A DNA stretch of 64,000 bases from Bacteroidota bacterium (GCA_036477295.1 JAZGDE010000046.1:13135-77134), one strand, 5' to 3'. Numbered from the stretch's first letter, positions 3,016 through 51,032 are shown. Program-made: numbers and translations. Notes: generated by a model from the letters alone, not told the origin.

Positions 3016-4691
3016 TGATCACCAGTTACTACACTCTCCAGGCACTCGCCCAAGAATTCGACCAATCGCTTCGCCGCGCAACGATCCGGGAAATTTTCAC
3101 GCAGCAGAAGAACGAGCTTCTCATCTCACTCGAAGCCCGATCGAATGCGTGGACGCTGACCGCTTCGACGGATCCCCGCATGAATTATGTCTTCCTTCGT
3201 GACCCCGTCGCCCGTGCGAAGAGGAATTCCGTCGATATTTTTCCCGCGCTCTTCGGAAAGGAAGTTGTGAAAGTGTGGGTACACCGAAACGATCGTATTC
3301 TGCAGATTAACGTGCAAGATTCCGGATCGATCTGCCTTCAACTGTTTGGAAACCCCGCAAACATTCTCCTCGTGAACGAGGACGGTGTGATCGTGGACGC
3401 GTTCAAGAAATCGAAAGACGTTGTCGGAAAACGGCTTGTCGTCGCACAACCGAACACCCATTTGGACCTCCTCGAGAGTGAAACTCGGTTCGCGGAGGTG
3501 CTGCAGTCACATGCTTCAAACACCGCCTTCGCTGCGATGAAGTCGGCCATTCCGACGCTCGGGTCAACGCTCAGTAGGGAAATTTTTCACCGTGCGCACG
3601 TCGACGAAAAACAACAGCTTACAGCTCTCGATGAAAAGCAAATGAAAATAATCTTGTCTCAGCTACGTGCACTTTCCGAAGAACTACGCTCACCCTCCCC
3701 GGTGATCTACTTCCGCGAGAGACATCCCCGAGCGTTCTCCCTCGTCCCGCTTCAGCACATGGCTGGATCCATGAGCCAAGCCTACCGGACAGTCAACGAG
3801 GCCGTGCGGACCTTCGTCATCGCCACGTTTCGCGTCGAAAGTGTCGAACGGGAGAAAAATGTCCTCCTCAAGGTCATAAAGAGGGAGCTCGACAAGTCTC
3901 AGCGCTCCCTCCAGGCGCTGACGAAAGAACTCCTTGAGCACAATCGAGCAGCCGAGTACGAGAGGATCGCGAACATCATCATGGGAAACTTGCAGCACCT
4001 AACCAAGGGAACAAAGGCGGTCGATCTTCCAGACTTGTACCCCGCGAAGAGGCGCGTGCGAATCACGATGGACCCGAAACTCACCCCCGCGCAGAATGCG
4101 AAACGATACTTTGACAAGGTGAAAAAGGTACGGCATGCACTCCAGCAAGCGGGTGAACGGTCGGAAAACCTCAAGTCGAAAATTGCCATCCTTGAGAAAT
4201 TGCAGCTCCACCTCGATTACTGCAACACCAAAGAACAGCTGAAGGAATTCCAGGACCAGCATCGGGACGAACTCCTCGCGCTGAATATGATCAAACTGGA
4301 CAAACCACAAGAGGACCTGCCGTTCCGCGTGTTTACTCTGAACGGTGGGTTCAAAGTCTGGGTAGGCAAGAGTAGCGAACAGAATGACCTGCTGACGATG
4401 AAGTACGCAAAGCCCAACGATTTTTGGTTCCACGCCCGGGGAGCTGGCGGCTCCCATGTCGTCTTGAAGGTGGGATCGGGGAAAGGAGAACCTGGCAAAA
4501 TCGCGAAGCAGCAGGCGGCAAGCATCGCTGCCTACTACAGCAAGATGAAAAACGCAAAACACGTTCCGGTGGCGTATTGTGAGCGCAAATTCGTTCGGAA
4601 ACCGAAAGGCGCTAACCCGGGAAGCGTTGTGCTCGAACGCGAGAAGGTCATTTTCGTCGAACCGCGGCTGCCGCCGGTGTCCGGGGCATAA
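3016..4691 (+). CDS. rqcH: NFACT-family RNA-binding protein (FbpA/RqcH-like, Rqc2 homolog, ribosome quality control)
   Basis: The ORF-track ORF starts at 2814; start placed at 3016 because MITSYYTLQALAQEFD resembles FbpA/RqcH N-termini. C-terminal NFACT-R-like region (NGGFKVWVGKSSEQND...HARGAGGSHVVL). Confidence 0.8.
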
Positions 4692-4738
4692 GAACAACAT
4701 CCTCTTGCACGTTGATTCATCCGTAGAGAGGCGTTGCC

Positions 4739-5539
4739 ATGATCTTCAAACAATACATGCACGACCAGGGAGGCTGTCTTTCCTACTTGATGGGGTGCAC
4801 GCGAACGGATGTTTGTTGTGTCGTGGATCCCCAGCTCGACATCCAACCGTACCTCACCAGCGCCTCGTCCAAAAACCTCACCATCACCCACGTCTTTGAA
4901 ACACACACGCAGGCGGACCATCTCTCTGGGGCGAGAAAGCTCGCTGACGCAACAGGGGCTGCAGTGTATTCTCACAAATCAGTCCAAGCCGCATTCCCGT
5001 TCGTCCCTGTCAGCGAAGGTGACGAACTGATGGTCGGAAACGTCAAAATTACAGTCCTCCACACGCCCGGTCACACTCCCGACAGCGTGTGCTTTCTCGT
5101 GGCGGACACCACACGCTCAGTACACCCATGGATTGTTCTGACAGGTGATACATTGTTCGTCGGTGATACCGGTCGACCTGACTTGGATGGAAGTGCGGAG
5201 GACTTGTACGATAGTCTCTATCAAAGATTGATGAAGCTTGACGATGCGATCGAGATTTTCCCCAGCCATTTTGCCGCTTCCGTGTGCGGTCGAGCGCTCA
5301 GCCCGAAACCGAGCTCCACAGTCGCGTTTGAACGGCGATTCAACCCTTCACTTCAATTTCCGTCAAGGGCTGAGTTTGTGCAGTTCGTGATCCAGAGTCT
5401 ACCCGTCCAACCGCCGCGATTTCACAAGGTCCGGCAGTTTAACCTCGGATTTCTCCAGGAGCCGCCCATCGATAAGACGTTCGATGAGAATTCCTTGCAA
5501 ATCACCGTCGAAGAACTTAAACTTCCGATAAATCGCTAA
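4739..5539 (+). CDS. MBL-fold metallo-hydrolase (glyoxalase II / persulfide dioxygenase-like)
   Basis: 266 aa. HxHxDH motif (HTQADH), later HTPGHT and GDTLF. Confidence 0.65.
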   Translation: MIFKQYMHDQGGCLSYLMGCTRTDVCCVVDPQLDIQPYLTSASSKNLTITHVFETHTQADHLSGARKLADATGAAVYSHKSVQAAFPFVPVSEGDELMVGNVKITVLHTPGHTPDSVCFLVADTTRSVHPWIVLTGDTLFVGDTGRPDLDGSAEDLYDSLYQRLMKLDDAIEIFPSHFAASVCGRALSPKPSSTVAFERRFNPSLQFPSRAEFVQFVIQSLPVQPPRFHKVRQFNLGFLQEPPIDKTFDENSLQITVEELKLPINR

Positions 5540-5551
5540 GGAGACTCCTGA

Positions 5552-6766
5552 ATGAAACGAACAAACCACTTGCCTCGCCCTGTATCCATCGCCACCAAGG
5601 CAATACACGGGACGAGGATGTACCCCCACCGCGGGCCTGTCTCATTCCCCATCTATCAGACTTCGACGTTCCGATTTGAGACCTCCGAGGACGCAATTCG
5701 ACATGCAGAGGGGGATGAATCGGTGTATGTGTACACCAGGTACCACAATCCGACGACGCAAGACGTCGAGGAAAAGCTCGCTCTGATGGAAGATGGAGAA
5801 GCCGCAGCGATCTTTTCGTCGGGAATGGCTGCAATCACGACAGCAATTCTCACGGCGGTCAAGAGCGGGGAAGAACTCGTCAGCACCCCCTCGCTTTATG
5901 GCGGCACGTATCGGTTTTTTCGGGATGTTCTCCCGAATCACCAGATCTGCGTGCGCTATGTGGACCCAGACCACTTGGAAGAACTAGAATCCCTCATCAC
6001 GAAAAAGACACGTCTCGTTTACTTTGAAACGCCGACAAATCCCACGCTGAATCTCATCGACATCGAGCAGCTCGTCCGCCTGACCCAGATGATGCGGAAG
6101 CGGCTTGGCATTCCACTCCTGACGATGATCGATAATACATTCGCGACAACGCTCAATCAGTGTCCCTTTGATTTTGGAGTCGATGCCGTGGTGGAGAGTG
6201 CAACGAAATACCTCGGCGGCCACAGCGATATCATCGCTGGGGTGGTAGTTGGTAGGAGAGATTTTACCAAGAGAGTAAAAACGAGTGCGAAGTACTACGG
6301 CGGCTGCGCTGACCCGTTCGCTTCCTATCTTCTCTTGCGAAGCCTCAAAACGTTTGAGCTTCGCGTTGAACGCCAGAACGAAAACGCCTTGGCACTGGCA
6401 GGCTTCTTCGAAAAGCACCCGAAGGTGAAGCATGTCCTCTATCCCGGACTTCCCTCCCATCCGAAACACCAGCTGGCCAGGAAGCAGATGAGGAACGGAT
6501 TCGGGGGGATCGTCACGATCGAATTGAAGGGTGGGGTGAAAGCTGCTGTGAAGGTGTGCAATCGCCTCCGCATCGCGATCAATGCGATGTCGCTCGGGGG
6601 CGTCGAAACGCTCGTGAGCATTCCCGTGTATTCATCCCATGTCAAGATGACTCCTGACGAGCTGCAACGTCACGGCGTCACACCGGGGATGCTGAGGATT
6701 TCCGTTGGCGTTGAAGCGGTAGAGGACTTGATGGCGGATTTTGAGGAGGCATTGAGATTCGTCTAG
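5552..6766 (+). CDS. Cys/Met metabolism PLP-dependent enzyme (cystathionine gamma-synthase/beta-lyase or methionine gamma-lyase family)
   Basis: 404 aa. Characteristic YTRYHNPT, SATKYLGGHSD (PLP lysine region), ISVGVE near the C-terminus. Confidence 0.8.
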   Translation: MKRTNHLPRPVSIATKAIHGTRMYPHRGPVSFPIYQTSTFRFETSEDAIRHAEGDESVYVYTRYHNPTTQDVEEKLALMEDGEAAAIFSSGMAAITTAILTAVKSGEELVSTPSLYGGTYRFFRDVLPNHQICVRYVDPDHLEELESLITKKTRLVYFETPTNPTLNLIDIEQLVRLTQMMRKRLGIPLLTMIDNTFATTLNQCPFDFGVDAVVESATKYLGGHSDIIAGVVVGRRDFTKRVKTSAKYYGGCADPFASYLLLRSLKTFELRVERQNENALALAGFFEKHPKVKHVLYPGLPSHPKHQLARKQMRNGFGGIVTIELKGGVKAAVKVCNRLRIAINAMSLGGVETLVSIPVYSSHVKMTPDELQRHGVTPGMLRISVGVEAVEDLMADFEEALRFV

Positions 6767-10112: not shown

Positions 10113-10973
10113 ATGTCAGTTTTTCCACGGAAGATCTTGATGACGAGAACAATCCGATTCGGACACAGTCCCGATCCTGATGACGCCTTCATGTTCTACG
10201 GAATCGCTTTGGGACAAGTGTCACTCGACGATATCCACATTGAACATCTGCTCGAAGACATTCAATCGCTCAACCAGCGAGCGCTGAGGGGTGAGCTGGA
10301 AGTCACAGCAATTTCCGCCCACGCGTATGCGTACGTCGCCGACCGGTACTGGGTCATGAAAACCGGAGCAAGTATGGGAGAGGGATACGGCCCAGTCATG
10401 GTCTCTCGGCATTTCCGCACGGTCGAAGATCTCCATGGTAAGTTGGTTGGAACACCTGGCCCTCTCACCACGGCGACGCTGCTTTTCAAACTCTTCACCG
10501 AGAAGATGGACAACGTCGATCTGCCGTTCGACGACATCCTGCGAGCGCTCGAGGAGGACCAGATCGATGCCGGGGTGCTCATCCACGAAGGACAAATTAC
10601 CTACGAAGCGAGCGGCCTGCACAAAATCCTTGACTTCGGGGAGGTCTGGAACGTCCAGACCGGCGGTCGTCCGCTTCCACTCGGACTCGATGTCGTCCGG
10701 AAAGATCTGGGTGACCAGCTCGCCGGTCAGCTCTCTTCCGCGCTTCGGCGCAGCATCGAATACGGGTACGAGCATCAGGAGGAAGCAGTGGAGTATGCCC
10801 TACGGTATGGCCGCGGAATCGACAAAGATCTCTGCAGGCGGTTCATTAAGATGTACGTGAATGAGCTTACGGTGGATATGGGTAAGGCTGGTCAAGAATC
10901 GCTCGAGGAGCTTTACACTCGTGCCTACCAGAAGGGCCTGATTCCCCTCAAGCCGATACTCCGAATCTGCTGA
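10113..10973 (+). CDS. mqnD: MqnA/MqnD-family menaquinone (futalosine pathway) protein, MqnD-like (1,4-dihydroxy-6-naphthoate synthase candidate)
   Basis: Motif IRFGHSPDPDDAFMFYGI resembles the MqnD SPCPNDTF N-terminus; periplasmic-binding-protein-like fold. Probable true start at M10 (position 10140). Confidence 0.6.
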   Translation: MSVFPRKILMTRTIRFGHSPDPDDAFMFYGIALGQVSLDDIHIEHLLEDIQSLNQRALRGELEVTAISAHAYAYVADRYWVMKTGASMGEGYGPVMVSRHFRTVEDLHGKLVGTPGPLTTATLLFKLFTEKMDNVDLPFDDILRALEEDQIDAGVLIHEGQITYEASGLHKILDFGEVWNVQTGGRPLPLGLDVVRKDLGDQLAGQLSSALRRSIEYGYEHQEEAVEYALRYGRGIDKDLCRRFIKMYVNELTVDMGKAGQESLEELYTRAYQKGLIPLKPILRIC

Positions 10974-11039: not shown

Positions 11040-12131
11040 TCAAGCCGCCTCGACGTCGTCGAAGACGCGCAAGATCTGGTAGAGGGTCGTCCGCTGTGCT
11101 GGCACAAATCCTGCCTCACGAATCAGTGCAATCACTTCCTCAACGTTCGTCTTATTGACGAAGTTCGCAGCCGCATGGACGTTCTCTTCATACAGAGTTC
11201 CACCGAAATCATCAGCCCCGAAGTGGAGACCTATCTGCCCAGCTTTCTTTCCCTCTGAGAACCACGAAGCCTGAATGTGCGGAAAGTTGTCAAGATAGAT
11301 GCGCGCGAGAGCAAGAATCTGCATGTATCGTGTAGACGTTGCGTAGTGAGGAATAATTTTTTCTAGCGGTGTATTGCCTGGCTTGAAGCTCCACGGCACG
11401 AACGCGGTAAACCCCCAGGTCTCGTCCTGCAGCTGTCGGATGCTCTCGAGATGCTGGATGATGTCCTCATATGTCTCGATATGACCGTACATCATCGTCG
11501 CAGTTGTCTTAAACCCAATCCGATGTGCCTCACGCATGACGTTGAGCCAGTCCTCCGAGGTTCCTTTCTTGAAACTAATTTTCTTCTTCACACGATTGGA
11601 GAGGATCTCCGCTCCGCCACCCGGTATCGTGCGAAGTCCAGCATCCCACAATCGCTGCAGCACGCCCCGGACCATCAGACCCGAGACTTCGGACATCCCG
11701 ATGATTTCAGATGTCGAGAAGAAATGCGGGTGAATCTCTGGAACCTCCTCCACTGTTCGACGAACTAAGTCGATGTAGTAATCGAACGGCAACGCAGGAT
11801 TAACCCCTCCCTGGAGCAGTACCGTCGTCACTCCTTTCACTGCAGACTCCTTGAACTTCTGGATCATGTGGTCCACGGTGTAGGTGTACTCACCCTTTTC
11901 TCCTGGATGTCGATAGAATGCACAGAAGATGCAATCGACATTGCAGATGTTCGTGTAGTTGGGGTTTGTATCGACCGCGAACGTCACCCACGGCTTGGGA
12001 TTCTTCTGGTAGCGGATCTCCTTCGCCAACTCACCGAGGTCAAGCAGTTCCGCTTCCTGAAGAAGGGTTAATCCTTCTTCTGAAGAAATCCTCTCACCGG
12101 TTCGAACTTTCTTGAGAATATCTCTTACCAT
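11040..12131 (-). CDS. mqnC: Radical SAM futalosine-pathway enzyme, MqnC-like (cyclic dehypoxanthinyl futalosine synthase) or second MqnE-type
   Basis: 363 aa. CNVDCIFCAF (CxxxCxxC) radical-SAM motif. MqnC/MqnE family architecture (GGAEIL..., MMYGHIET). Confidence 0.75.
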   Translation of the reverse strand: MVRDILKKVRTGERISSEEGLTLLQEAELLDLGELAKEIRYQKNPKPWVTFAVDTNPNYTNICNVDCIFCAFYRHPGEKGEYTYTVDHMIQKFKESAVKGVTTVLLQGGVNPALPFDYYIDLVRRTVEEVPEIHPHFFSTSEIIGMSEVSGLMVRGVLQRLWDAGLRTIPGGGAEILSNRVKKKISFKKGTSEDWLNVMREAHRIGFKTTATMMYGHIETYEDIIQHLESIRQLQDETWGFTAFVPWSFKPGNTPLEKIIPHYATSTRYMQILALARIYLDNFPHIQASWFSEGKKAGQIGLHFGADDFGGTLYEENVHAAANFVNKTNVEEVIALIREAGFVPAQRTTLYQILRVFDDVEAA

Positions 12132-12221: not shown

Positions 12222-14222
12222 TCAGGGGCGAGCAACCGACTCAACCTCTTCCACCAGGCGCCGGAAGACCCGCATCGCCTTGCGTTCTCGTTCACCGAGG
12301 TGGTAGTTGAAGCCCTCAAGATACTCGATTACTTCTGCCGGTGAAAGTCCGACCTGCTTTCCGTTCAGCCACAGAGTCCTATTCCGACCCTGTTCTCCCT
12401 CCAAGGCTTGAGCAGAGACGAAATTGCCCGCCGCATTGATGGCGGACCTTCGGTCCGCGAAATGTAAGTCGGATCGTTGTTCTGACACAATGATGTCGGA
12501 TCTTCGACCTTCAGCGAAGAAATCCTCCTCTGCCTTCGCGAGCGACGTTTCGATGATCTGTGCCAACTCCACTTTCGTCTCAGCAGGCAGCGATTTCTTC
12601 ACTGCCCAGACCGCAAAGACAAATGGGAGCTTTTGCCATTCATACCACTCCTTCGCGAGGTCGAAGACGAGCTCGAATCCCTCGAGTCCGAATTTGTTCC
12701 TGCGCAGTGCATCGTCACCGATGAGCAACACAGCGTCATACTTCGAGTATTCATTGACTCCCGAATGCATCCGTTCAAGGTTTGCCTCCACTCCGTATTT
12801 CTTTTCTAAGAGGATCTTGAGGAGTTTTACCGATGTTGCAGTCTCGTCGGTGATCCCGATGAGCTTCCCGTGGAGGTCACCCCAGCCATAGTTAGAAAAA
12901 AGCATGACACTTTTCACCTGATCGCGGGTAGCGATACACCAGCTCATCAGTTCGAGGTGATGTTCCTGCTGAAAATAGTCGATGAGAGAGAACAAACCGG
13001 CGTCGATCTGACCTTGGGAGGAGAGCATACCCATTCGTCTCGGTGCAATCGGGAGAATTTTGAATTGCCTGCGTTCGAAGTGCTGGTAGTACGGCACCGA
13101 GTTCAGGTATGGAATTTTCCCGATCACGTTATCCGTGTAGACATTCAGCGGGTTGTAATACACATCGCGCTCAACGGGGATTTTGCCTGCATCCCGGATG
13201 ATGTTGAGGATCTGGTCCTTCGCAAGCTTCATCGGGCTGATCGCACCAGCGTCGTGTGCGATGTGCTCCTCGCCAACCGTGCCATCCATATCGTCGGCAC
13301 CGAAGTTGAGCGCGATCGCCGCCACCTCCTCTGTGAGCATGACCCAGTAGGCTTTGATGTGCGGGAAGTTATCCAGCATCAGGCGAGAAATCGCAATCGT
13401 CTTCAGATCATCGATGGCCGAGGTGAACTGGGAACGTGCTTTGATTCCGGTGTCGCCGGGCTGGAACGCCAGCGGAATGAAGGTCAAGAATCCGCCGGTC
13501 TCATCCTGCAACTCCCGAAGTTTAATCATGTGCTCGATGCGTTCTTCAATCGTTTCGATATGACCGTAGAGCAATGTTGCGTTGGTCGGGATCCCCATCC
13601 GGTGAGCGGTCCGATGAATGTCCAACCACACCTTCGCGCCAATTTTTTGATTGAAGAGCAGCCGACGGACTCGTTCCGAGAATACCTCCGCACCACCTCC
13701 GGGCATCGTTCGCAATCCTGCCTCCTTCAACTGCAGGAGGACTTCCTCGATCGGCATTTTGAACTTCTTATGGTAGAAGTCAATCTCAACGGCAGTAAAC
13801 GCTTTGATATCGATGTTCGGAAACGAGGCCTTAATCGAGCGAAGAATACCCAGATACTGTTCCCATGGCCAGTCGGGCGGCATGCCGCCCGTGATTTGAA
13901 CCTCGTGCAAGTCCGGAGTGAGCTTAGAAAGAATTTCCTCCTGTGTCATCTCGTAGGCATCCGGCTGATCGCGCTTCGTTGCAAAGTCGCAGAACTTGCA
14001 GGCGAGCACACAGATGTTTGTAGGCTCGATCTTGCGGTTCAGGACAAAGTACACGGCATCGCCGCTCTTCAAGCGCTGGACGGCTTGAGCCATTTTGCCA
14101 AGCGAGATGATGTCCTGTGTCGCGTAGAGTGCCACACCGTCTTCCAGCGTCAGGCGCTCGTCGACTTGCACTTTCTCCCAGATGGGGATGAGATTGCGGT
14201 CACGAAAGGCAAGGTTGCTCAT
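12222..14222 (-). CDS. Fusion protein: N-terminal radical SAM MqnE-like (aminofutalosine synthase) domain plus C-terminal MqnA-like (chorismate dehydratase) domain
   Basis: 666 aa. The N-terminal ~350 aa has CVLACKFCDF and MqnE/MqnC-family blocks (GGAEVF, LLYGHIETIEE). The C-terminal ~290 aa has MqnA hallmarks: GKIPYLNSVPYY, LPIAPRRMGMLSSQGQIDAGLFSLIDY, PFVFAVWAV. Confidence 0.8.
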   Translation of the reverse strand: MSNLAFRDRNLIPIWEKVQVDERLTLEDGVALYATQDIISLGKMAQAVQRLKSGDAVYFVLNRKIEPTNICVLACKFCDFATKRDQPDAYEMTQEEILSKLTPDLHEVQITGGMPPDWPWEQYLGILRSIKASFPNIDIKAFTAVEIDFYHKKFKMPIEEVLLQLKEAGLRTMPGGGAEVFSERVRRLLFNQKIGAKVWLDIHRTAHRMGIPTNATLLYGHIETIEERIEHMIKLRELQDETGGFLTFIPLAFQPGDTGIKARSQFTSAIDDLKTIAISRLMLDNFPHIKAYWVMLTEEVAAIALNFGADDMDGTVGEEHIAHDAGAISPMKLAKDQILNIIRDAGKIPVERDVYYNPLNVYTDNVIGKIPYLNSVPYYQHFERRQFKILPIAPRRMGMLSSQGQIDAGLFSLIDYFQQEHHLELMSWCIATRDQVKSVMLFSNYGWGDLHGKLIGITDETATSVKLLKILLEKKYGVEANLERMHSGVNEYSKYDAVLLIGDDALRRNKFGLEGFELVFDLAKEWYEWQKLPFVFAVWAVKKSLPAETKVELAQIIETSLAKAEEDFFAEGRRSDIIVSEQRSDLHFADRRSAINAAGNFVSAQALEGEQGRNRTLWLNGKQVGLSPAEVIEYLEGFNYHLGERERKAMRVFRRLVEEVESVARP

Positions 14223-14243
14223 GCTGCGTTCATATATCTTAGA

Positions 14244-14483
14244 TTAGCCCCAAACAAAAACCCCGCCGATGATGAAACCACTCCAGAACCGAATTTGACC
14301 TCCCGATGAAACCAATCCGCGACGCTCAGCCCATACGCCGCATTGGACCCAAAATCCTCGGTCTACCACTCCGGAACACAATGTTGGGCTGAAACCAGTT
14401 GAAAAGAAGCCATGGATCCAGTTCGTGTAACCCGTGATGCCGATGGAGAATGCCAGTGGTACGATGTAAAAGATCATATACAT
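14244..14483 (-). CDS. Possible small hydrophobic (membrane) protein inside the mqn operon
   Basis: 79-aa ORF with two hydrophobic segments (MYMIFYIVPLAFSIGITGY..., GFIIGGVFVWG) in the 430-bp gap between ubiD and the mqnE-mqnA fusion. No family recognised. Confidence 0.3.
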   Translation of the reverse strand: MYMIFYIVPLAFSIGITGYTNWIHGFFSTGFSPTLCSGVVDRGFWVQCGVWAERRGLVSSGGQIRFWSGFIIGGVFVWG

Positions 14484-14650
14484 CGCGAAGGCGATGGCAA
14501 ACCAGTTCCACTGAAACTTACTCCCCCCAACCCGACGGTTGTACTGCTGCAGCCATAACGCGCCTTCTTGATTGTGGATTGTGAATCGTAGAAAATCATC
14601 ACGATTACGTTAAACCATGTTGTGAGAGGAACAATGGCGTTTCGTCAGTG

Positions 14651-16468
14651 TTACTTCCAGTATGAATCCCAACGCTCATCGACACGCTTCGTGATTTTCT
14701 CTGTCATCACCAACGACTCGGGATACCCTTTTTTCCACGTCGCGTCGATCCCCAGAATGCCTTTGTAGACTGGCGAGATTCCTGTGGTTCCCGACGGCAG
14801 ACGCGGGAGTTTCTGCTCCGAGAACAAGACGTCGCGCTCGCAATCGAAACGGGTGAAAATCCCCCAGATGTAACTTACCGAGTCGTGCAAGTCCACATCC
14901 TCACTCACGGCGGCAATGATCCTCAAAGCCTGAAGCTCTTTTTTCCGAACGAGCTTTTCGACGACCGTCCGTCCGTCCTTCCGCACTTTCACCAGCAAGA
15001 GAGTTTCCTCAACAAGATTTGTCTCGACAATCCTTCGGTCGAACTGTTTGAGATGAGAAATCCCGGACTGGAGGGCTCTTCGTTTTCGCGCTTCCGATTC
15101 CGGGTCTCTCGCTCTTCCACCTCGTTGTTTGCGGGTCGCGTCGATTACCATCTTGCTCCCAAGCTCCATTGTGTAGCTCGTGAAATCAAGAGTGTCGAGC
15201 GGCACCTTGGGAATCAGAACAAAATCATAATGCGGATCGAAGTGATCTCGGATCTCCCGGAGTACGGTTTGCCAGTCCTTCGGGTCGATTTCCGATGAAA
15301 CGAGAACGGCGCACTTCGTCAGCGACAACTGTCCCTCGCCCATCAACCCGAGCGCTGCTTTCATCGCTTCCTTCTGATACCGCTCTTCCACCGACACGAC
15401 GAGCAGGTTGTGGAATCCCGCTTCGTAATACGCCCAAAGGCTTCGTACCTCTCGATGCACCAACCGAATGAGTGGACCAAGAATCTGCTGGGTTGCGTCA
15501 CCCAGATACTTATCCTCCATCGGAGGTTTCCCAACGATCGTCGCCGGATAGATTGGGCTCTTCCTCCTTGTTATTCCCTTAAGATGGAACACCGGGAACC
15601 GCGCTGCATGAGAATAATGCCCGAAATGGTCACCGTACGGACCCTCCATCCTCCGCTTCTTTGGGGGGACGATACCCTCAAGGACGAACTCCGCGTTCGC
15701 AGGCACGTCAATCGAGATGAACTGACCCCTTGTCATCGGTATTCGCTTCCCTCGCAGGAAGGAAGCAAACATCACCTCGTCCATTCCTTCTGGCAGTGCG
15801 GCGACCGTCGCAATCAGCAGCGCGGGATCCGTGCCGAGAGCCACTGCCACTTCGAGGGGCTTGCCGAGCTTCTCTGCCTGGAAGTAATGAAACCCACCTC
15901 CCTTCTGAATCTGCCAGTGCATGCCGGTACTCTGCTTGTCATACACGTGCAGACGATAGATACCAACGTTGCGCATTTTGCTGAGTGGATCCTCCGTGAT
16001 CACCTGGCCGAGCGTGAGGAACCGTCCGCCATCCTTCGGCCAACAGAACTGAATGGGCAACGCATCGAGGTCGGGTGATTCGGAGACTTCCTGAGCTATC
16101 CCCATCTTGACGCGCTTCGGTCGGGCACTGAGCAGTCGCCTTACGATCGTCCGATGTTCGAAAAGAACGTTGAGCTTCGGTGGGATGATTCGATCAAAAA
16201 ACGTGATGAGCTCCTCGCCGATCCTCTCCGGATGTTTTCCGAGCGCAAGCTCAACGCGTCGCTCACTTGCCAGAACGTTCATCGCGACGGGGAAGCGAGA
16301 GTTCTTCACTTTTTCAAAGAGCACTGCGGGCCGACGCTCTTCCAAAGCGCGAACCGCAATTTCCGTCATCTCAAGATGTGGATCAACCTCAACTTTAACT
16401 CTGTGGAGCTCTCCAATCGATTCCAGATAACGAACAAATTCGCCAAGGGCAGGAAAAGTCATCCGCAT
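14651..16468 (-). CDS. ubiD: UbiD-family decarboxylase (menaquinone-pathway MqnL-type / 3-polyprenyl-4-hydroxybenzoate decarboxylase family)
   Basis: 605 aa, UbiD family throughout (GGRFLTLGQVITEDP, GPYGDHFGHYS). Confidence 0.85.
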   Translation of the reverse strand: MRMTFPALGEFVRYLESIGELHRVKVEVDPHLEMTEIAVRALEERRPAVLFEKVKNSRFPVAMNVLASERRVELALGKHPERIGEELITFFDRIIPPKLNVLFEHRTIVRRLLSARPKRVKMGIAQEVSESPDLDALPIQFCWPKDGGRFLTLGQVITEDPLSKMRNVGIYRLHVYDKQSTGMHWQIQKGGGFHYFQAEKLGKPLEVAVALGTDPALLIATVAALPEGMDEVMFASFLRGKRIPMTRGQFISIDVPANAEFVLEGIVPPKKRRMEGPYGDHFGHYSHAARFPVFHLKGITRRKSPIYPATIVGKPPMEDKYLGDATQQILGPLIRLVHREVRSLWAYYEAGFHNLLVVSVEERYQKEAMKAALGLMGEGQLSLTKCAVLVSSEIDPKDWQTVLREIRDHFDPHYDFVLIPKVPLDTLDFTSYTMELGSKMVIDATRKQRGGRARDPESEARKRRALQSGISHLKQFDRRIVETNLVEETLLLVKVRKDGRTVVEKLVRKKELQALRIIAAVSEDVDLHDSVSYIWGIFTRFDCERDVLFSEQKLPRLPSGTTGISPVYKGILGIDATWKKGYPESLVMTEKITKRVDERWDSYWK

Positions 16469-16563: not shown

Positions 16564-17115
16564 TCATTCCAGTTCTCCGGAGCGCCAGCCCTTCGATGAT
16601 CTCACGCCGATCACCCCCATGACTTTATCGACAAAGGCTTTCACATATTCTTCGACCGTTTTCGGCACGAAGTACAACGGCGGTGCTATCGGCATAATGA
16701 TCGCACCGTCGCGCGAGAGCAACGCACACTGTTCGAGCGATGTCGTCGACATCGGCGTTTCGCGGACACACAGGACCAACTTATACCGTTCTTTCAATGC
16801 AACCTGCGCAGTTCGGGTGATCAACGTATCTCCGATCCCCGAAGCGATTTTTCCAATCGTACCGGTCGAGCACGGGATAATAACACACGCATCAAACCGA
16901 TTCGATCCTGAAGCAAGCGGTGCAGTCAAATCCTCGTCAGAAAACTGGCGCTTCACGTACTGGTGCAAGTCTTTGTCGGTCATCCGGAGCTCATCTTTCA
17001 GCAAGACTTTTCCCCACTTGCTGACGACAAGGAATTTATCCGGCGGGCACTGTTTCAGAAATTCCACGGCGTAGATCGCGCCGGAACAGCCGGTGATGCC
17101 CACGACGGTTCTCAC
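16564..17115 (-). CDS. ubiX: UbiX-family flavin prenyltransferase
   Basis: Flavoprotein fold VVGITGCSGAIYAVEFLK. Start assigned to GTG at 17115, which overlaps the ubiA TGA stop (GTGA). The ORF-track ORF extends further upstream without a Met. Confidence 0.8.
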   Translation of the reverse strand: MRTVVGITGCSGAIYAVEFLKQCPPDKFLVVSKWGKVLLKDELRMTDKDLHQYVKRQFSDEDLTAPLASGSNRFDACVIIPCSTGTIGKIASGIGDTLITRTAQVALKERYKLVLCVRETPMSTTSLEQCALLSRDGAIIMPIAPPLYFVPKTVEEYVKAFVDKVMGVIGVRSSKGWRSGELE

Positions 17116-17954
17116 ACCCACAGTACTCCCACGAAGACCATCCCGAACACGACGAATCCGAGCGCCGCATTGATCTTGAAGAACGCTAGCTCGACTTCTG
17201 CAGCTCGCCTCTGTTCCAGATAGAGCAGCCAGCCAGTGATCAGAAGGAGTGGTACCGCAATCAACACTTTGATATGATAGAAATAGAGAACCACAAGAAC
17301 TGCGTACGCCAGCCCATGAATCCACGCAGACACGGCGAGCGCGCGCTTCCGGCCAAGGTGCGCAACGAGCGAATGGAGATTCTCCTTCCGGTCAAAATCC
17401 TCATCGAGTATCGCATAGATAATGTCGAAACCGCTCACCCAGAGCAGTGTAAACGTCGAGAGAAGCGCTCCAGGCAACAGGTCGTCAAACGATTGCTTGA
17501 CCGCAAACCAGCCTCCGAGCGGAGCCATGGCCAACCCGAGTCCCACACCGAAATGCGCAAGGCGCGTGAACCGCTTCATGTACGGATACCCCACAAAAAT
17601 GATCAGCGGGATGGGTGAGAGCAAAAGCGTAAAGCTTGAAATCGCGTACGCAGCGAGAAAATAGAGCGTAAGTCCCAAGAGGAGAACAACCAATGCTTCC
17701 ACCGTCGTCATCCGTCCAGCGGGCAGCTCACGGTTGGCAGTCCGAGGATTCCGACGGTCGATTTCACGATCGATAATTCGATTGAGTGTCAGAGCAACGA
17801 TCCGGGCCCCAACTCCGGCGACGAACACGAGGCCAAGTAGCTTCAGGGAAGGAATCGCCTTCGATGCTAGGAACACACCGCTGTAGATCAGGGGCAGAGA
17901 AAAGAGCGTGTGTTCGACCTTGATAAAATTGAAGTATTTTCTTAACAGCAACAA
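17112..17954 (-). CDS. ubiA: UbiA-family polyprenyltransferase (menaquinone-pathway MqnP-type)
   Basis: 280 aa, multi-TM, UbiA Asp-rich motifs (NRIIDREIDRRNPRTANR, DIIYAILDEDFD). Confidence 0.85.
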   Translation of the reverse strand: MLLLRKYFNFIKVEHTLFSLPLIYSGVFLASKAIPSLKLLGLVFVAGVGARIVALTLNRIIDREIDRRNPRTANRELPAGRMTTVEALVVLLLGLTLYFLAAYAISSFTLLLSPIPLIIFVGYPYMKRFTRLAHFGVGLGLAMAPLGGWFAVKQSFDDLLPGALLSTFTLLWVSGFDIIYAILDEDFDRKENLHSLVAHLGRKRALAVSAWIHGLAYAVLVVLYFYHIKVLIAVPLLLITGWLLYLEQRRAAEVELAFFKINAALGFVVFGMVFVGVLWV

Positions 17955-26244: not shown

Positions 26245-27261
26245 ATGAGGAAGGTTGTGCCAACAGTCACAAAGCGAAAACACACCGGTGATGTCGAAGC
26301 CGTTCGCGCACTTCAACAGGCCTACAATGATCTCCGCAAAGAGATAGCCAAGGTGATCATCGGTCAGGATAAGATCATCGAACAGCTGTTGACATCGCTG
26401 CTCGCCCGTGGACACTGTCTTGTCGTCGGTGTGCCGGGCCTGGCCAAGACTCTGATGATCAAAACCTTGGCCCAAGTGCTCGACTTGAAGTTCAGTCGAA
26501 TCCAGTTTACCCCTGATCTCATGCCGAGCGACATCACTGGAACGGAAATCATCGAGGAGAACGTCTCGACGGGAGAGAAAAACTTCAAGTTTGTCAGGGG
26601 ACCTGTCTTCGCCAACATCATCCTCGCCGATGAGATCAACCGCACGCCGCCCAAGACGCAAGCAGCTCTACTGGAAGCAATGCAGGAATACCACGTCACG
26701 GCGGCAGGAGAAACCTACACCCTGGAAGAACCATTTTTCGTACTGGCGACCCAAAACCCGATCGAGCATGAAGGCACCTACCCGCTACCAGAAGCGCAGC
26801 TCGACCGGTTCATGTTCAACCTGTGGATCGACTACCCCTCGTTTCAAGAAGAAATCGATATCGTCAAATCCACAACGAGTCCTTACCAGCCCGAGCTTCG
26901 CCGTATCCTCAGCGCGAAGGAGATCATCGAATTCCAAGAACTTGTACGACGTGTTCCGGTGGCTGACAACGTTATCGAGTACGCTGTGACGTTGGTCGAC
27001 AAAACTCGACCAAAATCGCCGAACGCCCCGCAGTTTATCAAAGATTGGCTGAGCTGGGGGGCGGGACCGCGCGCGTCCCAGTACTTAATCCTTGGGGCAA
27101 AAGTGCATGCCATTCTCGACGGACACCATACACCCGAGATCGAGAACGCTCGGGAGATGGCTGGTCCGGTCTTGCGACACCGGGTCGTGACGAACTTCAA
27201 CGCCGAGGCGGAAGGAGTGACCGCAATTGACATTGTAGAGAAACTGCTGTCGACTGAGTGA
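26245..27261 (+). CDS. MoxR-family AAA+ ATPase
   Basis: 338 aa. Walker A GVPGLAKT, Walker B ILADEINR, MoxR-specific C-terminal region. Confidence 0.85.
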   Translation: MRKVVPTVTKRKHTGDVEAVRALQQAYNDLRKEIAKVIIGQDKIIEQLLTSLLARGHCLVVGVPGLAKTLMIKTLAQVLDLKFSRIQFTPDLMPSDITGTEIIEENVSTGEKNFKFVRGPVFANIILADEINRTPPKTQAALLEAMQEYHVTAAGETYTLEEPFFVLATQNPIEHEGTYPLPEAQLDRFMFNLWIDYPSFQEEIDIVKSTTSPYQPELRRILSAKEIIEFQELVRRVPVADNVIEYAVTLVDKTRPKSPNAPQFIKDWLSWGAGPRASQYLILGAKVHAILDGHHTPEIENAREMAGPVLRHRVVTNFNAEAEGVTAIDIVEKLLSTE

Positions 27262-30169: not shown

Positions 30170-32347
30170 ATGTTTTCCTCTATAGATCTCAGCTTCAACG
30201 TTAACATTCTCCTCCTACTCCTGCTCGGAATCGTCTCGTTCCTGTTTTCGTTCTTCATCTACGCGCACACGGTCCCGCCCGTTCCACCCCGTCTCCGCTG
30301 GATACTTATCTCACTCCGAGCTTTGGGCGTTTTTCTGATCCTCGCCATCCTATTCGAACCTATTCTCAAACTCATCCATCGCGAGGAGAAGCCCCCGGCC
30401 ATCGTCATGCTCATCGATGACTCCAAGAGTATGGCGCTGACGGACCGACGCGGTCATCGTGCATCGACCGTTCAGGCGCTGCTGAAGAGCCCAGGACTAC
30501 AACAGCTGGGGGAAAAAGTCGCGGTCGAGCACGTCCACTTTGCACAGCTCACCCGATTCGTCGAGTCCCATCTCAACGATTCGCTCACGTTCGCAGGCGA
30601 CGCCACGAACCTCGCACAGGCCCTGACTGTTCTTGCGGAGGAATCGGAAGAACGGAACATTCAGGGGGTCATCCTGATCACGGACGGGAATTACAACGTC
30701 GGTCAGAATCCGCTTTATGCTGCAGAAACTCTCGGTAAGCCTCTCTACACCATCGGGATTGGTGATTCCTCCGAGCAAAAAGATCTCCTCATTTCAAAAC
30801 TCCTCACGAATAACATCGCTTATGTGGACAGTAAGATACCCGTATCGGTTACGATTAAGAGCTCCGGATTTGGCGGCGAGCGGGTTGAACTTTCGCTGGA
30901 TGAAGCCGGCAAGGTCATTGACCAGCAATTTCTGATCCTAAAAGAGGGAACCCAGGAATATTCCACCACCCTGTTTTTCACTCCCCACGAAGAGGGAATG
31001 AAAAAATACACTGTCCGGGTCTCCCATTTGGAGGGTGAATTGACGGTACAGAACAACATGCGCACGGTCCTCGTTAAAGTACTCAAGAGCAAGATCAAGA
31101 TACTCCTGATCGCCGGAGCACCCAGCCCAGACCTTGCGTTCCTTCGAAGGACTCTCGAGTCAGACCCGAACATTCAGGTTACGACATTCGTGCAAAAGTC
31201 TGCCAATGAGTTTTACGAAGGCCAGCCACCGAACTCAGTGTTTCAGGATCATGATGGCATCATCCTGCTCGGTTTTCCCCGGCAGGAATCTCCCTCCGGC
31301 GTGCTAGATCAAGTTCGACGAGCGGTTGATGAGGACAACCAAGCGCTGTTCGTCATCCTCACAAGGACAATGGACCTCGAACACCTTCGCTCACTGCAAC
31401 CCTACCTGCCCTTCACGGTTCAGCAGGTTCGCACGGAAGAAGTTGCCGTCCTGCCTTCTGTTCCCAAAGTCCACGAATTCCACACGCTCCTCAAGCTGCC
31501 AAGCGGGAGGAATCCTGTCGAGTTCTGGAACGCACTCCCACCTGTGTACAAAACTCAGTCGACTCTCCGTGCAAAACCCGAATCCGAGGTAATCGCATAC
31601 GTGCGCATTCAAAACCTCACCCTTCAGGAACCTCTCGTTGTTCTGAGAAAGGTGGCCCGCCGCAAATCGGTGGCCATCACCGGGTACGGCATCTGGCGAT
31701 GGAAACTGCTTGCCGAGAGCAGTTCCTCCGAGGAGGTGTTTGAACCGTTCATTGGCAACGTCGTGCGTTGGCTGACCACCCGCGAAGAGGAAAAGCAGGT
31801 CAAAGTCCGCACAACGAAGCAAATGTACAACGCGGGAGAACGAGTGGAGTTTACAGCACAGGTGTACGACGAACGGTACGATCCGGTCAGTGATGCCGAA
31901 GTCCGCGTGCGGATTCAGTCTGCGCCAGCTTTGTCGGCGGAGGAGGAATTCCTGCTCCGACCTATCGGAGAGGGACGGTTTGAAGGTGCTATCGAGAACC
32001 TGGGTGAGGGCGATTATAGCTATTCCGGTGTTGTATCCCTTGGCCGACGGCAACTCGGGGAAGATCGTGGAAGGTTTACGGTTGGTGAGCAGAATCTCGA
32101 ATTCCTCGCGACGCAGATGAATAAACCGCTGCTTCGGCAACTTGCCTACCAGACCGGCGGTCGATACTACGACCCCGAGGAGGTGGACAGCCTCGTCGAT
32201 CAGCTACTGCACAATGCCGACCTCGAGCCAAAGGAAATCGTCCGTTCCGATGAAATCGAACTCTGGAACCTTCAGCTTCTTTTGGGCGTAATCGTGCTCC
32301 TCTTTTCGACGGAGTGGTTCCTCCGCAAACGCAACGGGATGCTCTGA
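30170..32347 (+). CDS. von Willebrand factor A (vWA) domain membrane protein (BatA-like partner of MoxR)
   Basis: 725 aa. N-terminal TM helices, vWA fold (VMLIDDSKSM...ILITDGNYN), C-terminal TM. Confidence 0.7.
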   Translation: MFSSIDLSFNVNILLLLLLGIVSFLFSFFIYAHTVPPVPPRLRWILISLRALGVFLILAILFEPILKLIHREEKPPAIVMLIDDSKSMALTDRRGHRASTVQALLKSPGLQQLGEKVAVEHVHFAQLTRFVESHLNDSLTFAGDATNLAQALTVLAEESEERNIQGVILITDGNYNVGQNPLYAAETLGKPLYTIGIGDSSEQKDLLISKLLTNNIAYVDSKIPVSVTIKSSGFGGERVELSLDEAGKVIDQQFLILKEGTQEYSTTLFFTPHEEGMKKYTVRVSHLEGELTVQNNMRTVLVKVLKSKIKILLIAGAPSPDLAFLRRTLESDPNIQVTTFVQKSANEFYEGQPPNSVFQDHDGIILLGFPRQESPSGVLDQVRRAVDEDNQALFVILTRTMDLEHLRSLQPYLPFTVQQVRTEEVAVLPSVPKVHEFHTLLKLPSGRNPVEFWNALPPVYKTQSTLRAKPESEVIAYVRIQNLTLQEPLVVLRKVARRKSVAITGYGIWRWKLLAESSSSEEVFEPFIGNVVRWLTTREEEKQVKVRTTKQMYNAGERVEFTAQVYDERYDPVSDAEVRVRIQSAPALSAEEEFLLRPIGEGRFEGAIENLGEGDYSYSGVVSLGRRQLGEDRGRFTVGEQNLEFLATQMNKPLLRQLAYQTGGRYYDPEEVDSLVDQLLHNADLEPKEIVRSDEIELWNLQLLLGVIVLLFSTEWFLRKRNGML

Positions 32348-32700: not shown

Positions 32701-35172
32701 TCAACCCGACTTCTCCTCGGTCTCTTTAAGCTTTGCCTCTTCGTTCTCCTCCGCAAGGACTGGTGCCACATCCGCCACCGTATCTCCCGGTTCCAATCGG
32801 ATCAAACGCACGCCCTGAGTGTTTCGCCCTGCCTCCCGGATGTCTGAGGCATGCTGGCGGATGATCATGCCACGCTCGGTCACGACCACAACGTCGTCGC
32901 TCTCCGTCACTTCCTTGATTGCTACCATCTTGCCGGTCTTATTCGTAATCTTCACGGTGATAATTCCCTTGCCGCCGCGATGGCTCACACGATAGCCCTT
33001 CACATCGCTCCGCTTGCCGAAGCCGTGCTCCGTTGCAACCAGCAATGTCGTACCGCTCTTCCTCAACGCCACCGCTCCGACGACCTTATCGCCCTTTTCG
33101 AGCACAATGGCACGCACGCCGGTCGCCGTCCGCCCCATCTGGCGTGCCTCCTTCTCGTGGAAGCGGATGGCAAGTCCGTTTCGCGTTCCGATGACGATGT
33201 GCTGCGACCCGTCCGTCATCTTGACATCAATCAGCCGGTCTGCCTTGCGCATGTTGATGGCGGCAATCCCGTTCCGACGCGGGTTCCCGTACTCCGACAG
33301 TACCGTTTTCTTGATCATCCCTTTCTCCGTCACCATCACGACATAGTGTTCATCGTCAAACTCCTGCACGTTCAAGAACGCGGTAATGTTCTCTTCGACA
33401 GTTTTTTGGATAAGATTAACGACGGACCGCCCGCGCGACATACGTCCCGCCTCCGGAAGCTCGTGCACCTTAAGCCAGTAGCATCGTCCAGCGTCGGTAA
33501 AGAAGAGCAGGTGGTCGCGCGTGGAAGCGATGAATATGTGCTCGATAAAGTCATCCTCGCGCGCCGCCACAGCTGTGACTCCCCTCCCGCCACGTCCCTG
33601 CCGTCGGTATCCACTCACCGGATAGCGCTTGATGAACCCCCCGTGGCTGATGGTAATAACCATGTCCTCTTCGGCGATGAGGTCCTCGATGCTGAACTCC
33701 TCTGCCTGCTTCACGATCTTGGTGCGCCGTTCGTCGCCGTACTTTTTCTTCAGGTCGACAAGCTCTCCCTTGATGATTTCCATTCGCCATGTCTTATTCG
33801 CCAGAATCCCTCTTAACCTCTCCATCAGTTTGATCGTTTCCTTGTATTCGTCCTCGACCTTCTGCCGCTCAAGACCGGTAAGCTTCTGCAGCCGCATTTC
33901 GAGGATCGCCTTCGCCTGCACTTCGGAGAGCTTGAAGCGACTCACCAACCCCGTCTTTGCCGTGTCGGGGTCTTTTGACTTCTTGATCAATCGAATGATT
34001 GCATCGATGCTGTCAAGCGCGACCTTATAGCCTTCGAGGATGTGTGCGCGCTTCTCGGCCTCCTCGAGTTCAAATTTCGTCCGCCGCACCACAACCTCGT
34101 GACGGTACTCGATGAAGTGCTGCATCGCCTCCTTCAGTGTCAGCACCTTCGGCACACCGTTCACGAGTGCAAGCATGTTTACGCCGAACGTTGTCTGCAT
34201 CTGGGTATGCTTGTAGAGGTTGTTCAGCACCACTTCCGGAGTGGAGTCGCGCTTCAACTCGACGACTATCCGCATCCCGTCACGGTCAGATTCATCACGG
34301 ATGTCCGATATATCCTCGATCTTCTTCTCACGCACCAAGTTGGCTATGTGTTCGATGAGCGCTGCTTTGTTGACCTGGTAGGGAATTTCAGTCACGACGA
34401 TCCTCATCCGGTCGTTCCGACCAGTTTCAATGATCGCCCGCGCTCGCACAAGGATTCGACCTCTCCCCGTCTCGAAAGCCTCCTTCACTCCTTCGTAACC
34501 GTAGATGATGCCCCCGGTCGGAAAATCTGGGGCTTTTACATATTTCATGAGCTTCTTCGAATCGAGGCTCACATTGTCGATCAGCGCGAGGAGTCCATCG
34601 ACAACCTCGTTGAGGTTATGCGGAGGGATGTTCGTTGCCATGCCGACTGCAATTCCGCTCGAGCCGTTCACAAGGAGGTTCGGAAACAGAGCAGGCAAGA
34701 TGGAGGGTTCAGTTAGCGTATCGTCAAAATTCGGGACGAGGTTGACTGTGTTCTTCTCAATATCCCGCAGCATCTCCTCAGCGATGCGACCAAGCCGAAC
34801 TTCGGTGTATCGCATGGCCGCAGGCGCATCACCGTCGACCGAGCCAAAATTTCCCTGACCGTCGATAAGCGGATACCGGAGTGAGAAACCCTGCACCATA
34901 CGGACCATCGTGTCGTAGACGGCCACGTCCCCATGGGGGTGGTACTTTCCGAGCACTTCTCCGACGATGCGTGCGCTCTTCTTGTACGGCCGGTTGCTCG
35001 CGACGCCAAGCTCGTACATGCCATACAGCACGCGCCGATGGACTGGCTTCAGCCCGTCACGAACATCGGGTAGAGCTCGCGCCACGATCACGCTCATCGC
35101 GTAATCGATGTACGAGCTCTTCATCTCCTCTTCAATGTCGACGGGAATTACCTTCTCGGTGATAGTTGCCAT
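32701..35172 (-). CDS. gyrA: DNA gyrase subunit A
   Basis: 823 aa. ...[14 protein letters not shown]... and GyrA C-terminal beta-pinwheel repeats. Confidence 0.95.
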
Positions 35173-35348: not shown

Positions 35349-37469
<2,121 letters not shown>

Positions 37470-37834: not shown

Positions 37835-38900
37835 TCAATTCCTTGAAGCGCACATGGTATCGGTACTCGTGATGAATGTTTGCCCCAACTTGTCCAGAAC
37901 CCCCAGCAGCCTTCGGGATCTTTCCAGGTCTAACTCACCGAACACATCATCGAGCAACACGAGAGGCTTTTCACCCAGGACCCCTTGCAGGTAGAGAAAT
38001 TCTGCAAGCTTCAGAGCAATCAAAAACGTCTTATGCTGACCCTGCGAAGCATAGCGCCGGATGTCAAGCCCATTGATCCGCAGATGGAAATCATCGCGAT
38101 GGGGACCCACCAACGTCGAACCGAATTTCCTCTCTTCCTCTACCCGCTCACCAAGCTCGAGTTGAAGGAGTTGCCCGATCTCTTCCGCCGTCAAACTCCG
38201 GTCAACCTCCTCGAATGGCACATAGGACAGCGCTGGTTCCTCGTCGAGCCCCATGAGCCAGCCGTATGTTTCCATGATGTGATTTCGAAATTCGCCAACA
38301 AACTGCAGACGCTGGGCAACGAGGCGGCTTCTGTACCTGACTAATTGCTCATTCCAGGATTCCAAGGCCTCGGGGCTCACTGAGCGTCCGGCCAAGCCAT
38401 TCGACAGCACTCTGTTCCGCTGCTTCACGACCTTGCGGTACTCGACGAGATCTGCACAATATCCCGCGCTCGCTTGGCAAATAACCAGGTCGACAAACCT
38501 TCGTCGTTCCGCAGGAGCTCCCCGCGTAATGCCACCCTGTTCGGGCCAGAGAATCACAGCCGGATACTTCCCGATCATCGATGACAGTCAGTCGACTCGC
38601 CCTCCGTTGACTCGCAAAAGCTTCTCCCTTCTGATGCCATCGAACCTCACATGAACGACGCTCTTTACTCCGCTGTCCGTCCGGAACTTTCCTTCGACTA
38701 CAAAATAATCCTTCCCGATGGACAGAACAACCGCATCGCTGTCCGCGCTGAAACTCCTCGTCAGCGCCAGAAAGGATATCGCCTCGAGCACACTTGTCTT
38801 GCCGGCCCTGTTCGGTCCGACGATGAGGTTTGCGCGTGGAGCCCACGCAAACACAGAATGCTCGTGATTGCGGAAGTTCTCGTAGGCTCGCTCTAAGGAT
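37835..38900 (-). pseudogene. recF: recF disrupted: in-frame TGA (38588-38590) after ~108 codons, and no start codon for the conserved N-terminal strand
   Basis: Minus-strand translation reads ...RVNGGRVD*LSSMIGKYPAVILWPEQ... in a single frame. Upstream of the first possible start (GTG 38854) the frame encodes SVESLERAYENFRNHEHSVFAWAPRANLIVGPNRAGKT, the conserved RecF N-terminus, with no ATG/GTG/TTG in frame. The ATG just upstream belongs to the dnaN C-terminus (..MPVRLNP*). Confidence 0.75.
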
Positions 38901-42563: not shown

Positions 42564-42647
42564 ATGTCGTTCGGCGAGAGGATTGCTGCTAGAGCAAACC
42601 TCTTTTTTTTCGTCAAGGGAGTATTCAGTAGGAGATGCATATCACAG

Positions 42648-42794
42648 ATGAAGCCGACGTATCAACCGAGCATCCGGAAGCGAAAAAATACACACGGCTT
42701 TCGTGCGCGCATGAAATCGAAGAGCGGCCGGAGAGTGGTGGCGCAGCGCAGAGCGAAGGGTCGTTGGAAGTTAACGGTCAGCGACGAACGATAA
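42648..42794 (+). CDS. rpmH: 50S ribosomal protein L34
   Basis: [44 protein letters not shown] preceded by AGGAG. The ORF-track ORF is N-terminally over-extended. Confidence 0.9.
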
Positions 42795-42814
42795 TCAACC
42801 GGCGAACGATTCCT

Positions 42815-43470: not shown

Positions 43471-43492
43471 GCGTTGATACAATGGAGGTCTG

Positions 43493-47645: not shown

Positions 47646-47790
47646 ATTTAGGCTCCTTTCTTCATGGACGTTGGTATCAATCTGTTCTTGAAGTTACGAA
47701 GGAAAAGTTCGTGAGGTAAAACACAGGCCAAAGACAGTCGAATGTCAGGTATTGCCGTGCGAGCAGAACACTGGTTGAATCATGCTATCT

Positions 47791-50982: not shown

Positions 50983-51032
50983 GTAAGTTTACATAACACC
51001 GAGGTTTCACGTGAAACTCGCTTTCGACGGGT

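Follow-up and report, generated by a model that had tools for sequence, protein, structure and literature searches.

Gene content of the mqn cluster

The window analysed here is a 64-kb (64,000-nt) stretch of contig JAZGDE010000046.1 from a Bacteroidota bacterium, and the ORF listing of this window gave an uninterrupted ORF of 666 aa with an ATG start on its minus strand (12222-14222, stop codon included). The encoded protein carries three Pfam domains, including PF04055 (Radical_SAM, residues 65-232), PF19288 (CofH_C, residues 244-360), and PF02621 (VitK2_biosynth, residues 367-659), and the ORF is therefore designated as an mqnE::mqnA fusion. The matches of both modules are far beyond chance (E-value 3e-141 for MqnE in NCBIfam and 3e-44 for PF02621 in Pfam). 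The window protein has a 100% identical counterpart in NCBI, P0001, which bears the title "MAG: aminofutalosine synthase MqnE [Bacteroidota bacterium]". The first-pass annotation of this DNA had described a single 666-aa ORF with a radical SAM domain at the N-terminus and an MqnA-like domain at the C-terminus, which is upheld by the ORF listing, NCBIfam, and Pfam; all of the motifs it quoted are present in the ORF, namely CVLACKFCDF at residues 71-80, IPYLNSVPYY at residues 370-379, and PFVFAVWAV at residues 533-541.

The mqn cluster around the fusion is nearly complete. Downstream of the fusion, 90 bp away and on the same strand, lies mqnC (11040-12131), which is predicted to encode cyclic dehypoxanthinyl futalosine synthase (TIGR03699, 465 bits vs. 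428.1). It converges with mqnD on the plus strand (10113-10973), which is predicted to encode 1,4-dihydroxy-6-naphthoate synthase (PF02621, 244 bits) and whose product matches TTHA1568 of T. thermophilus (2CZL/3A3U, E-value 3.6e-54) and 1ZBM (E-value 8e-76) in the PDB. Upstream of the fusion, three further genes are located on the minus strand, including a gene of a UbiD-family menaquinone decarboxylase of the SCO4490/MqnL type (14651-16468, 605 aa; TIGR03701, 504.1 vs. 495.9 bits over residues 10-439), a gene of a UbiX-family flavin prenyltransferase (16564-17121, a 185-aa gene in the source record; TIGR00421, 158.8 bits), and a gene of a UbiA-family polyprenyltransferase (17112-17954; TIGR01475, 255.9 bits). 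The last one is MqnP-like, with the MqnP models scoring 172-205 bits, under their "exception" cut-offs. No MqnB/MTAN-type nucleosidase was found in the Pfam-annotated gene table of the source record (about 2.2-24.2 kb of the window) or when large ORFs other than those at 1225-1848, 1965-2843, 48307-48813, and 48870-49328, all beyond the range of the table, were scanned with Pfam.

A scan of the GTDB species representatives returned 440 relatives of the fusion, and the mqn gene order of the window is retained in most of the best 80 of the 440. The spacer at 14223-14650, which separates the fusion from the UbiD-type gene, is lineage-specific, being 428 bp long in the window and 20-40 bp in most relatives. 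A 79-aa ORF in this spacer (14244-14483) was considered as a gene and rejected, since it has no Pfam match and is uncalled in the source record; it is conserved no farther than the closest relative. An Rfam scan of the window, spacer included, gave no match. Separately, 41 of the best 80 of the 440 relatives have a conserved TIR-like ORF that separates mqnEA from mqnC and is missing in the window.

The N-terminal half

The N-terminal half of the protein (residues 1-362; 13137-14222, minus strand) was compared with profile models, sequences of solved structures, and, through a structure model, solved folds. An AF2 model made from an 11-sequence alignment was unusable (pLDDT 42.5), and an alignment of 119 sequences of fusion proteins led to a mean pLDDT of 75.1 and a pTM of 0.75, with low confidence in the cluster loop (residues 62-82) and in residues 251-263, 315-333, and 572-613. 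When this model was searched against the PDB with Foldseek, MqnE (6XIG/6XI9) took positions 1-4 (E-value about 1e-29 to 1e-30, target TM 0.72-0.74). MqnE 6XI9 was also the closest solved structure in the PDB sequence search (E-value 3.2e-83, residues 14-363).

MqnE is an aminofutalosine synthase of the radical SAM type, and its discovery was reportedly described by Mahanta et al. in 2013 (JACS). Residues 14-358 score 470.2 bits with the NCBIfam model TIGR03700 and exceed its curated equivalog cut-off of 434.55, while the same half stays below the cut-offs of MqnC (TIGR03699, 356.1 vs. 428.1) and CofH (307.5 vs. 374.1 bits). The MqnE-like character that had been proposed for this half is thus borne out at the level of profiles, the MqnE model being passed and the MqnC model not. 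The [4Fe-4S] cluster motif of radical SAM enzymes, CxxxCxxC, is read from the sequence as C71-x3-C75-x2-C78 (13989-14012, minus strand), and its three cysteines are invariant in the 119-sequence alignment. Judged from its sequence, the N-terminal half is a bona fide MqnE.

The MqnE of Pedobacter heparinus (6XI9/6XIG) has the CxxxCxxC motif and the CofH/MqnC C-terminal region in common with the window protein. However, characterised MqnE proteins stand alone (the 6XI9 chain has 419 aa), whereas the window protein adds an MqnA domain of about 300 aa, essentially without a linker, and the Foldseek search found no solved chain in the PDB that spans both halves. The bifunctional CofGH (FbiC, NF006687) is likewise a fusion of consecutive pathway enzymes in the same superfamily, in which the enzyme for a neighbouring step is attached to a CofH-family radical SAM module. 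Its partner domain and its pathway are not those of the window protein, and the CofGH model scores only 249 bits on the N-terminal half, far under its cut-off of 1018; we use CofGH as an analogy and claim no membership.

The C-terminal half

The C-terminal half (residues 363-666; 12225-13136, minus strand) was assigned to MqnA (chorismate dehydratase) on the basis of Pfam, comparison with the PDB, including Foldseek, and residue conservation. It shares the Venus-flytrap fold and the ligand residues of the characterised MqnA proteins SCO4506 (2NXO/7AHR) and DR0370 (2I6E/6O9A), from which it differs in being attached to the C-terminus of MqnE and in an identity of only about 21-24%. Among the relatives, the MqnA domain is also less conserved (52-63% identity) than the MqnE domain (74-84%). 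A lineage-specific insertion of about 45 aa (residues 573-617; 12372-12506, minus strand) was recognised within the MqnA domain from the alignment, HMMER, and AF2. It is missing in eight of ten aligned homologues, is shared in part by P0002 and P0003, and breaks the HMMER matches to the domain into two stretches; with an AF2 pLDDT of 27-38 over residues 572-613, it is probably a disordered surface loop.

According to a structural study of ScMqnA (JBC, 2022), Asn17 and Ser86 are absolutely conserved and orient the enolpyruvyl carboxylate, their mutants lose activity, and further ligand contacts are made by Thr59 and the Ser109-Ser112 loop (both to the benzoate carboxylate) and by the amide of Gly151 (PMC9672406). 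In the HMMER alignment, Asn17 and Ser86 correspond to N374 and S438 of the window protein, both of which are invariant among the 119 fusions. Thr59 corresponds to S412, Ser109-Ser112 to T461-A462-T463-S464, and Gly151 to G502, so that the hydroxyls at the Thr59 and Ser109 positions are kept via Ser/Thr swaps, and the hydrophobic contacts Pro41, Ile150, Phe186, and Ala187 correspond to P394, I501, F536, and A537. All of the mapped ligand positions are invariant in the alignment of the 119 fusion proteins save A462.

These residues bear on a reading in which the C-terminal domain would be a non-catalytic Venus-flytrap binder that presents chorismate or 3-enolpyruvyl-benzoate (3-EPB) to MqnE, with the dehydration taking place elsewhere. 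The PF02621 fold is that of solute-binding proteins, and TauA and the SBDs of GlnPQ are among the Foldseek matches; the faster evolution of the MqnA domain relative to the MqnE domain and the complete burial of the product in ScMqnA (PMC9672406) would also fit with such a role. Against this stand the invariance of the Asn17/Ser86 equivalents and of the ligand-contact positions, the finding of no second MqnA-like sequence within the 64-kb window, and the relatives with separate genes described below, whose clusters have the orthologue as their mqnA. A binder without catalysis is accordingly improbable, and a catalytic MqnA domain is preferred.

Within the PF02621 family, it has also to be asked whether the C-terminal half is MqnD-like or another paralogue rather than MqnA. 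The Pfam match is strong (152 bits over residues 367-659 vs. a gathering cut-off of 26), but PF02621 spans MqnA and MqnD alike and does not discriminate between them. NCBIfam models gave no match to residues 363-666 and likewise none to the neighbouring MqnD, and the library appears to be without models specific for MqnA or MqnD. The PDB comparisons, by contrast, do separate the two. By phmmer, the C-terminal 300 residues match the MqnA of S. coelicolor (7AHR/2NXO, E-value 3e-17) and of D. radiodurans (2I6E/6O9A, about 2e-14), whereas the MqnD-type AF1704 (1ZBM) is matched at merely 2e-4 and TTHA1568 (MqnD) is not matched at all. In the Foldseek ranking, MqnE is followed by 19 MqnA chains (target TM 0.69-0.79, E-value about 1e-17), and MqnD (2CZL) ranks far lower with an E-value of 6e-9. 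Furthermore, a strong and separate MqnD is encoded at 10113-10973, and the two PF02621 paralogues of the window are only 25% identical over just 114 aa. An MqnD-like C-terminal half is thus highly improbable. Structures of MqnA as the best matches, the retained catalytic Asn and Ser, and the adjacent separate MqnD agree with the MqnA-like domain of the first-pass annotation, and, as far as such comparisons can identify an enzyme, the C-terminal half is MqnA and not MqnD.

Conservation and distribution of the fusion

Grouped at 90% identity, the matches of the whole-protein search make up at least 120 clusters, which derive from NCBI, JGI, ENA, and Logan assemblies, have lengths of 618-666 aa, and all contain the three Pfam domains. 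Among the GTDB relatives, the best 80 of the 440 all cover residues from about 1 to 665 and are labelled as Ignavibacteria, Ignavibacteriales, or Bacteroidota MAGs, and a copy with 97% identity is present in another MAG (L001). In all of the 81 related loci, which come from independent assemblies, the MqnE and MqnA matches lie in one frame with no intervening stop codon. The domain junction of the window protein (residues 353-374, DVYYNPLNVYTDNVIGKIPYLN; 13101-13166, minus strand) leaves almost nothing between the end of MqnE and the start of MqnA, and a 24-residue junction motif of fixed length, ERD...GKIPYLN (ERDVYYNPLNVYTDNVIGKIPYLN), occurs in 74 of the 81 loci. The junction is kept at the protein level while the DNA of the related loci diverges.

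A different kind of record was found for P0129, P0131, and P0125, which are only 254-269 aa long and are named "menaquinone biosynthesis protein" or "MqnA/MqnD/SBP family protein" in NCBI. Upstream of each of them, 1.2-1.5 kb carries no called gene, and reading of the DNA showed that their frames stay open for 375-415 codons farther upstream, the CxxxCxxC motif included. They were therefore rejected as split relatives, since they are fusion ORFs with gene calls that are too short.

The 666-aa ORF might unite two genes through a frameshift or through a fault of assembly or sequencing, a concern raised in part by the first-pass annotation. A single-base error could in principle have this effect where split mqnE and mqnA are just 0-5 nt apart, as in some relatives, and the NCBI records with only a short MqnA call might seem to point the same way. 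Those calls, however, lie within longer open frames, and the in-frame, stop-free junctions in 81 of 81 loci from independent assemblies, together with the conserved junction length, exclude such an artefact for practical purposes and make read mapping unneeded. The survey of related genomes thus recovered the same fusion, both in these loci and in the protein clusters.

A HMMER search with the MqnA domain alone returned 3382 matches at E-value ≤ 1e-3. Two more full-length fusions, P0124 (628 aa) and P0132 (632 aa), are among the nearest representatives at 50% identity; proteins of candidate division KSB1 fall within the cluster of P0124, whose junction has the same length as that of the window. 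In addition, hundreds of database proteins display the fusion architecture in their precomputed Pfam annotation. The fusion is therefore not rare but the standard architecture of a large clade, and is common in Ignavibacteria-type bacteria. In full-text literature searches, no account of a fusion of MqnE and MqnA came up, though an earlier mention is possible. The gene calls described above show that annotation of the fusion is not uniform, some records naming MqnE alone and others giving no more than an MqnA fragment, and MqnA or MqnE can consequently be scored wrongly as missing when pathways are reconstructed from Ignavibacteria-, Bacteroidota-, or KSB1-type MAGs.

Origin of the fusion and domain order

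Where identity in the MqnA domain falls to about 32-35%, relatives with truly separate genes are found. One of them is L087 (Armatimonadota), in which a 258-aa mqnA follows a radical SAM gene of 372 aa and the stop and start codons overlap as TGATG, while L088 has the order ubiA, ubiX, radical SAM gene (mqnE), mqnA after 5 nt, and mqnC. The upstream radical SAM proteins of L087 and L088 are 60-62% identical to the MqnE domain of the window, compared with 37-38% to its MqnC. In these split relatives, MqnE terminates in ERDALYNVLRAYD followed by the stop codon and MqnA begins with MRLVVGQISYLNS, and the two align end to start with the fused junction.

Previous studies have named an mqnEAC operon for several Firmicutes (Ravcheev and Thiele, PMC4746308), and in Chlamydia, CT426, an MqnC paralogue that has no assigned role in the study in question, adjoins CT427 (MqnA) (PMC3937554). 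The split mqnE-mqnA(-mqnC) operons of the Firmicutes, L087, and L088 match the window in gene order and in the flanking ubiA, ubiX, and mqnC. They differ from it at the boundary of the two genes, where a stop codon and a separate start codon lie 5 nt apart or overlap, while the window has about two codons in place of stop, spacer, and start.

As the simplest origin of the fused gene, we infer that mqnE, closely packed with mqnA and coupled to it in translation, lost its stop codon. The ancestral setting would have been an operon of the order ubiA-ubiX-ubiD-mqnE-mqnA-mqnC. The domain order was earlier remarked on as the reverse of the reaction order; it is not odd, however, because radical SAM followed by MqnA mirrors the common, and presumably ancestral, gene order mqnE-mqnA-mqnC. 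Taken in this light, the fusion is an under-annotated but ordinary operon gene fusion of two canonical enzymes and not a surprise.

Predicted function and possible transfer of 3-EPB

In the futalosine (mqn) route, MqnE adds a 5'-deoxyadenosyl radical to 3-EPB, which leads to aminofutalosine. The preceding conversion of chorismate to 3-EPB is carried out by MqnA through substrate-assisted catalysis in the closed flytrap (PMC9672406). For the fusion, the C-terminal Venus-flytrap domain would thus be expected to dehydrate chorismate to 3-EPB, and the N-terminal radical SAM domain would convert 3-EPB to aminofutalosine. The identities of the two domains, the kept catalytic residues, the conservation of the fusion, and the split arrangement in relatives together make it very likely that the ORF encodes a bifunctional enzyme for steps 1 and 2 of this route toward menaquinone (vitamin K2). 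Both activities are accordingly predicted to be present in the fused protein, and the fusion would hold MqnA and MqnE at a 1:1 stoichiometry and in proximity to each other.

Whether the two domains also cooperate physically is a separate matter. A direct hand-off of 3-EPB is conceivable because MqnA buries its product completely and co-purifies with it. It is possible, though on balance doubtful, that the MqnE domain docks on the opening flytrap and takes 3-EPB directly, which would make the protein a true channelling machine from chorismate to aminofutalosine. If so, the fusion would offer a handle on a complex of MqnA and MqnE, which might arise transiently as well in organisms whose two genes are separate. 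In either case, the fusion gives support of the Rosetta-stone type to a functional, and possibly physical, partnership of MqnA and MqnE, and represents a ready-made construct and a candidate system for probing a direct hand-off of 3-EPB. Since the futalosine pathway is an antibacterial target in Helicobacter, Campylobacter, and Chlamydia, an MqnA-MqnE interface would also be of some interest in this respect.

A TIR-like ORF between mqnE::mqnA and mqnC

Of the 80 related loci (the best 80 of 440 relatives from a scan of GTDB species representatives), 41 carry a same-strand ORF of ~260-300 aa between mqnC and the gene for the MqnE-MqnA fusion protein, mqnE::mqnA. The ORF is represented by locus L009 (9877-10656, plus strand), and the other 40 have it at the equivalent position. 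No such ORF is present between mqnE::mqnA and mqnC in the window. The encoded protein matches the CAP12/Pycsar TIR-like domain of Pfam (PF10137, 30.9 bits against a cut-off of 24.7), while no sequence match was found in the PDB. Its identity between loci falls to ~34%, indicating divergence in step with the mqn cluster, and it therefore does not have the appearance of a recent mobile insertion. Because none of the clusters carrying this ORF contains a gene for a nucleosidase of the MqnB/MTAN type, its product could be an alternative aminofutalosine/futalosine N-glycosidase. Alternatively, the TIR-like ORF could be a defence gene residing within the operon.

Features of the fusion gene and its neighbours

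The MqnA domain of the window fusion carries a lineage-specific insert of 45 aa (residues 573-617, window 12372-12506), which is rich in R, S, A, E and Q and has pLDDT values below 40 in the AF2 model. This insert is common to the closest relatives only, being full in L001, the locus of a MAG with a 97% identical copy, and partial in the homologous fusion proteins P0002 and P0003. The fusion gene is separated from the UbiD-type gene by a 428-bp spacer (window 14223-14650), whereas the spacer at this position measures 20-40 bp in most relatives; the long form is common to L001 only, with ~84-87% identity. A hydrophobic ORF of 79 aa lies within the spacer (14244-14483, minus strand), for which neither a gene call nor a Pfam match was found, and the spacer itself has no match in Rfam.

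The UbiD-family menaquinone decarboxylase (605 aa, window 14651-16468, minus strand) matches TIGR03701 (SCO4490-type) only over residues 10-439, leaving a C-terminal extension of ~165 residues outside the match. The related loci L081 and L086 have called products of comparable size (600-603 aa).

Three uninterrupted MqnE-MqnA fusion ORFs, in L082 (4909-6792), L085 (~3876-5810) and L086 (~3756-5765), are represented in NCBI records by their C-terminal 254-269 aa only, named "menaquinone biosynthesis protein" or "MqnA/MqnD/SBP family protein"; the MqnE part is a gap without a gene in these gene tables, and the called start in L086 lies downstream of the catalytic Asn. In other records, the entire fusion is labelled "MqnE" only. 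With either naming, one enzyme can be missed in pathway reconstruction.

Genomic context

A class-I SAM methyltransferase gene (60995-61828, minus strand; UbiE/COQ5-family match, PF01209, 73 bits), located 47 kb from the mqn cluster, possibly encodes a demethylmenaquinone methyltransferase. Large ORFs of 437, 353, 689 and 725 aa, at 54750-59468 (minus strand) and 30170-32347 (plus strand), have no or marginal Pfam matches; the 725-aa ORF, which follows a MoxR-type AAA_3 ATPase gene (26245-27261), shows weak VWA matches.

The stretch from ~32700 to 54000 is the chromosomal origin region, comprising gyrA (32701-35172), gyrB (35349-37460), dnaN (38893-40005) and dnaA (40680-42155) on the minus strand, and rnpA, yidC, mnmE, mnmG and rsmG on the plus strand (42635 to 53722), interrupted on the minus strand solely by an M24 peptidase gene (45610-47082). 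The minimum of the cumulative GC skew falls at ~38-40 kb. These gene positions place the mqn cluster ~26 kb from dnaA.
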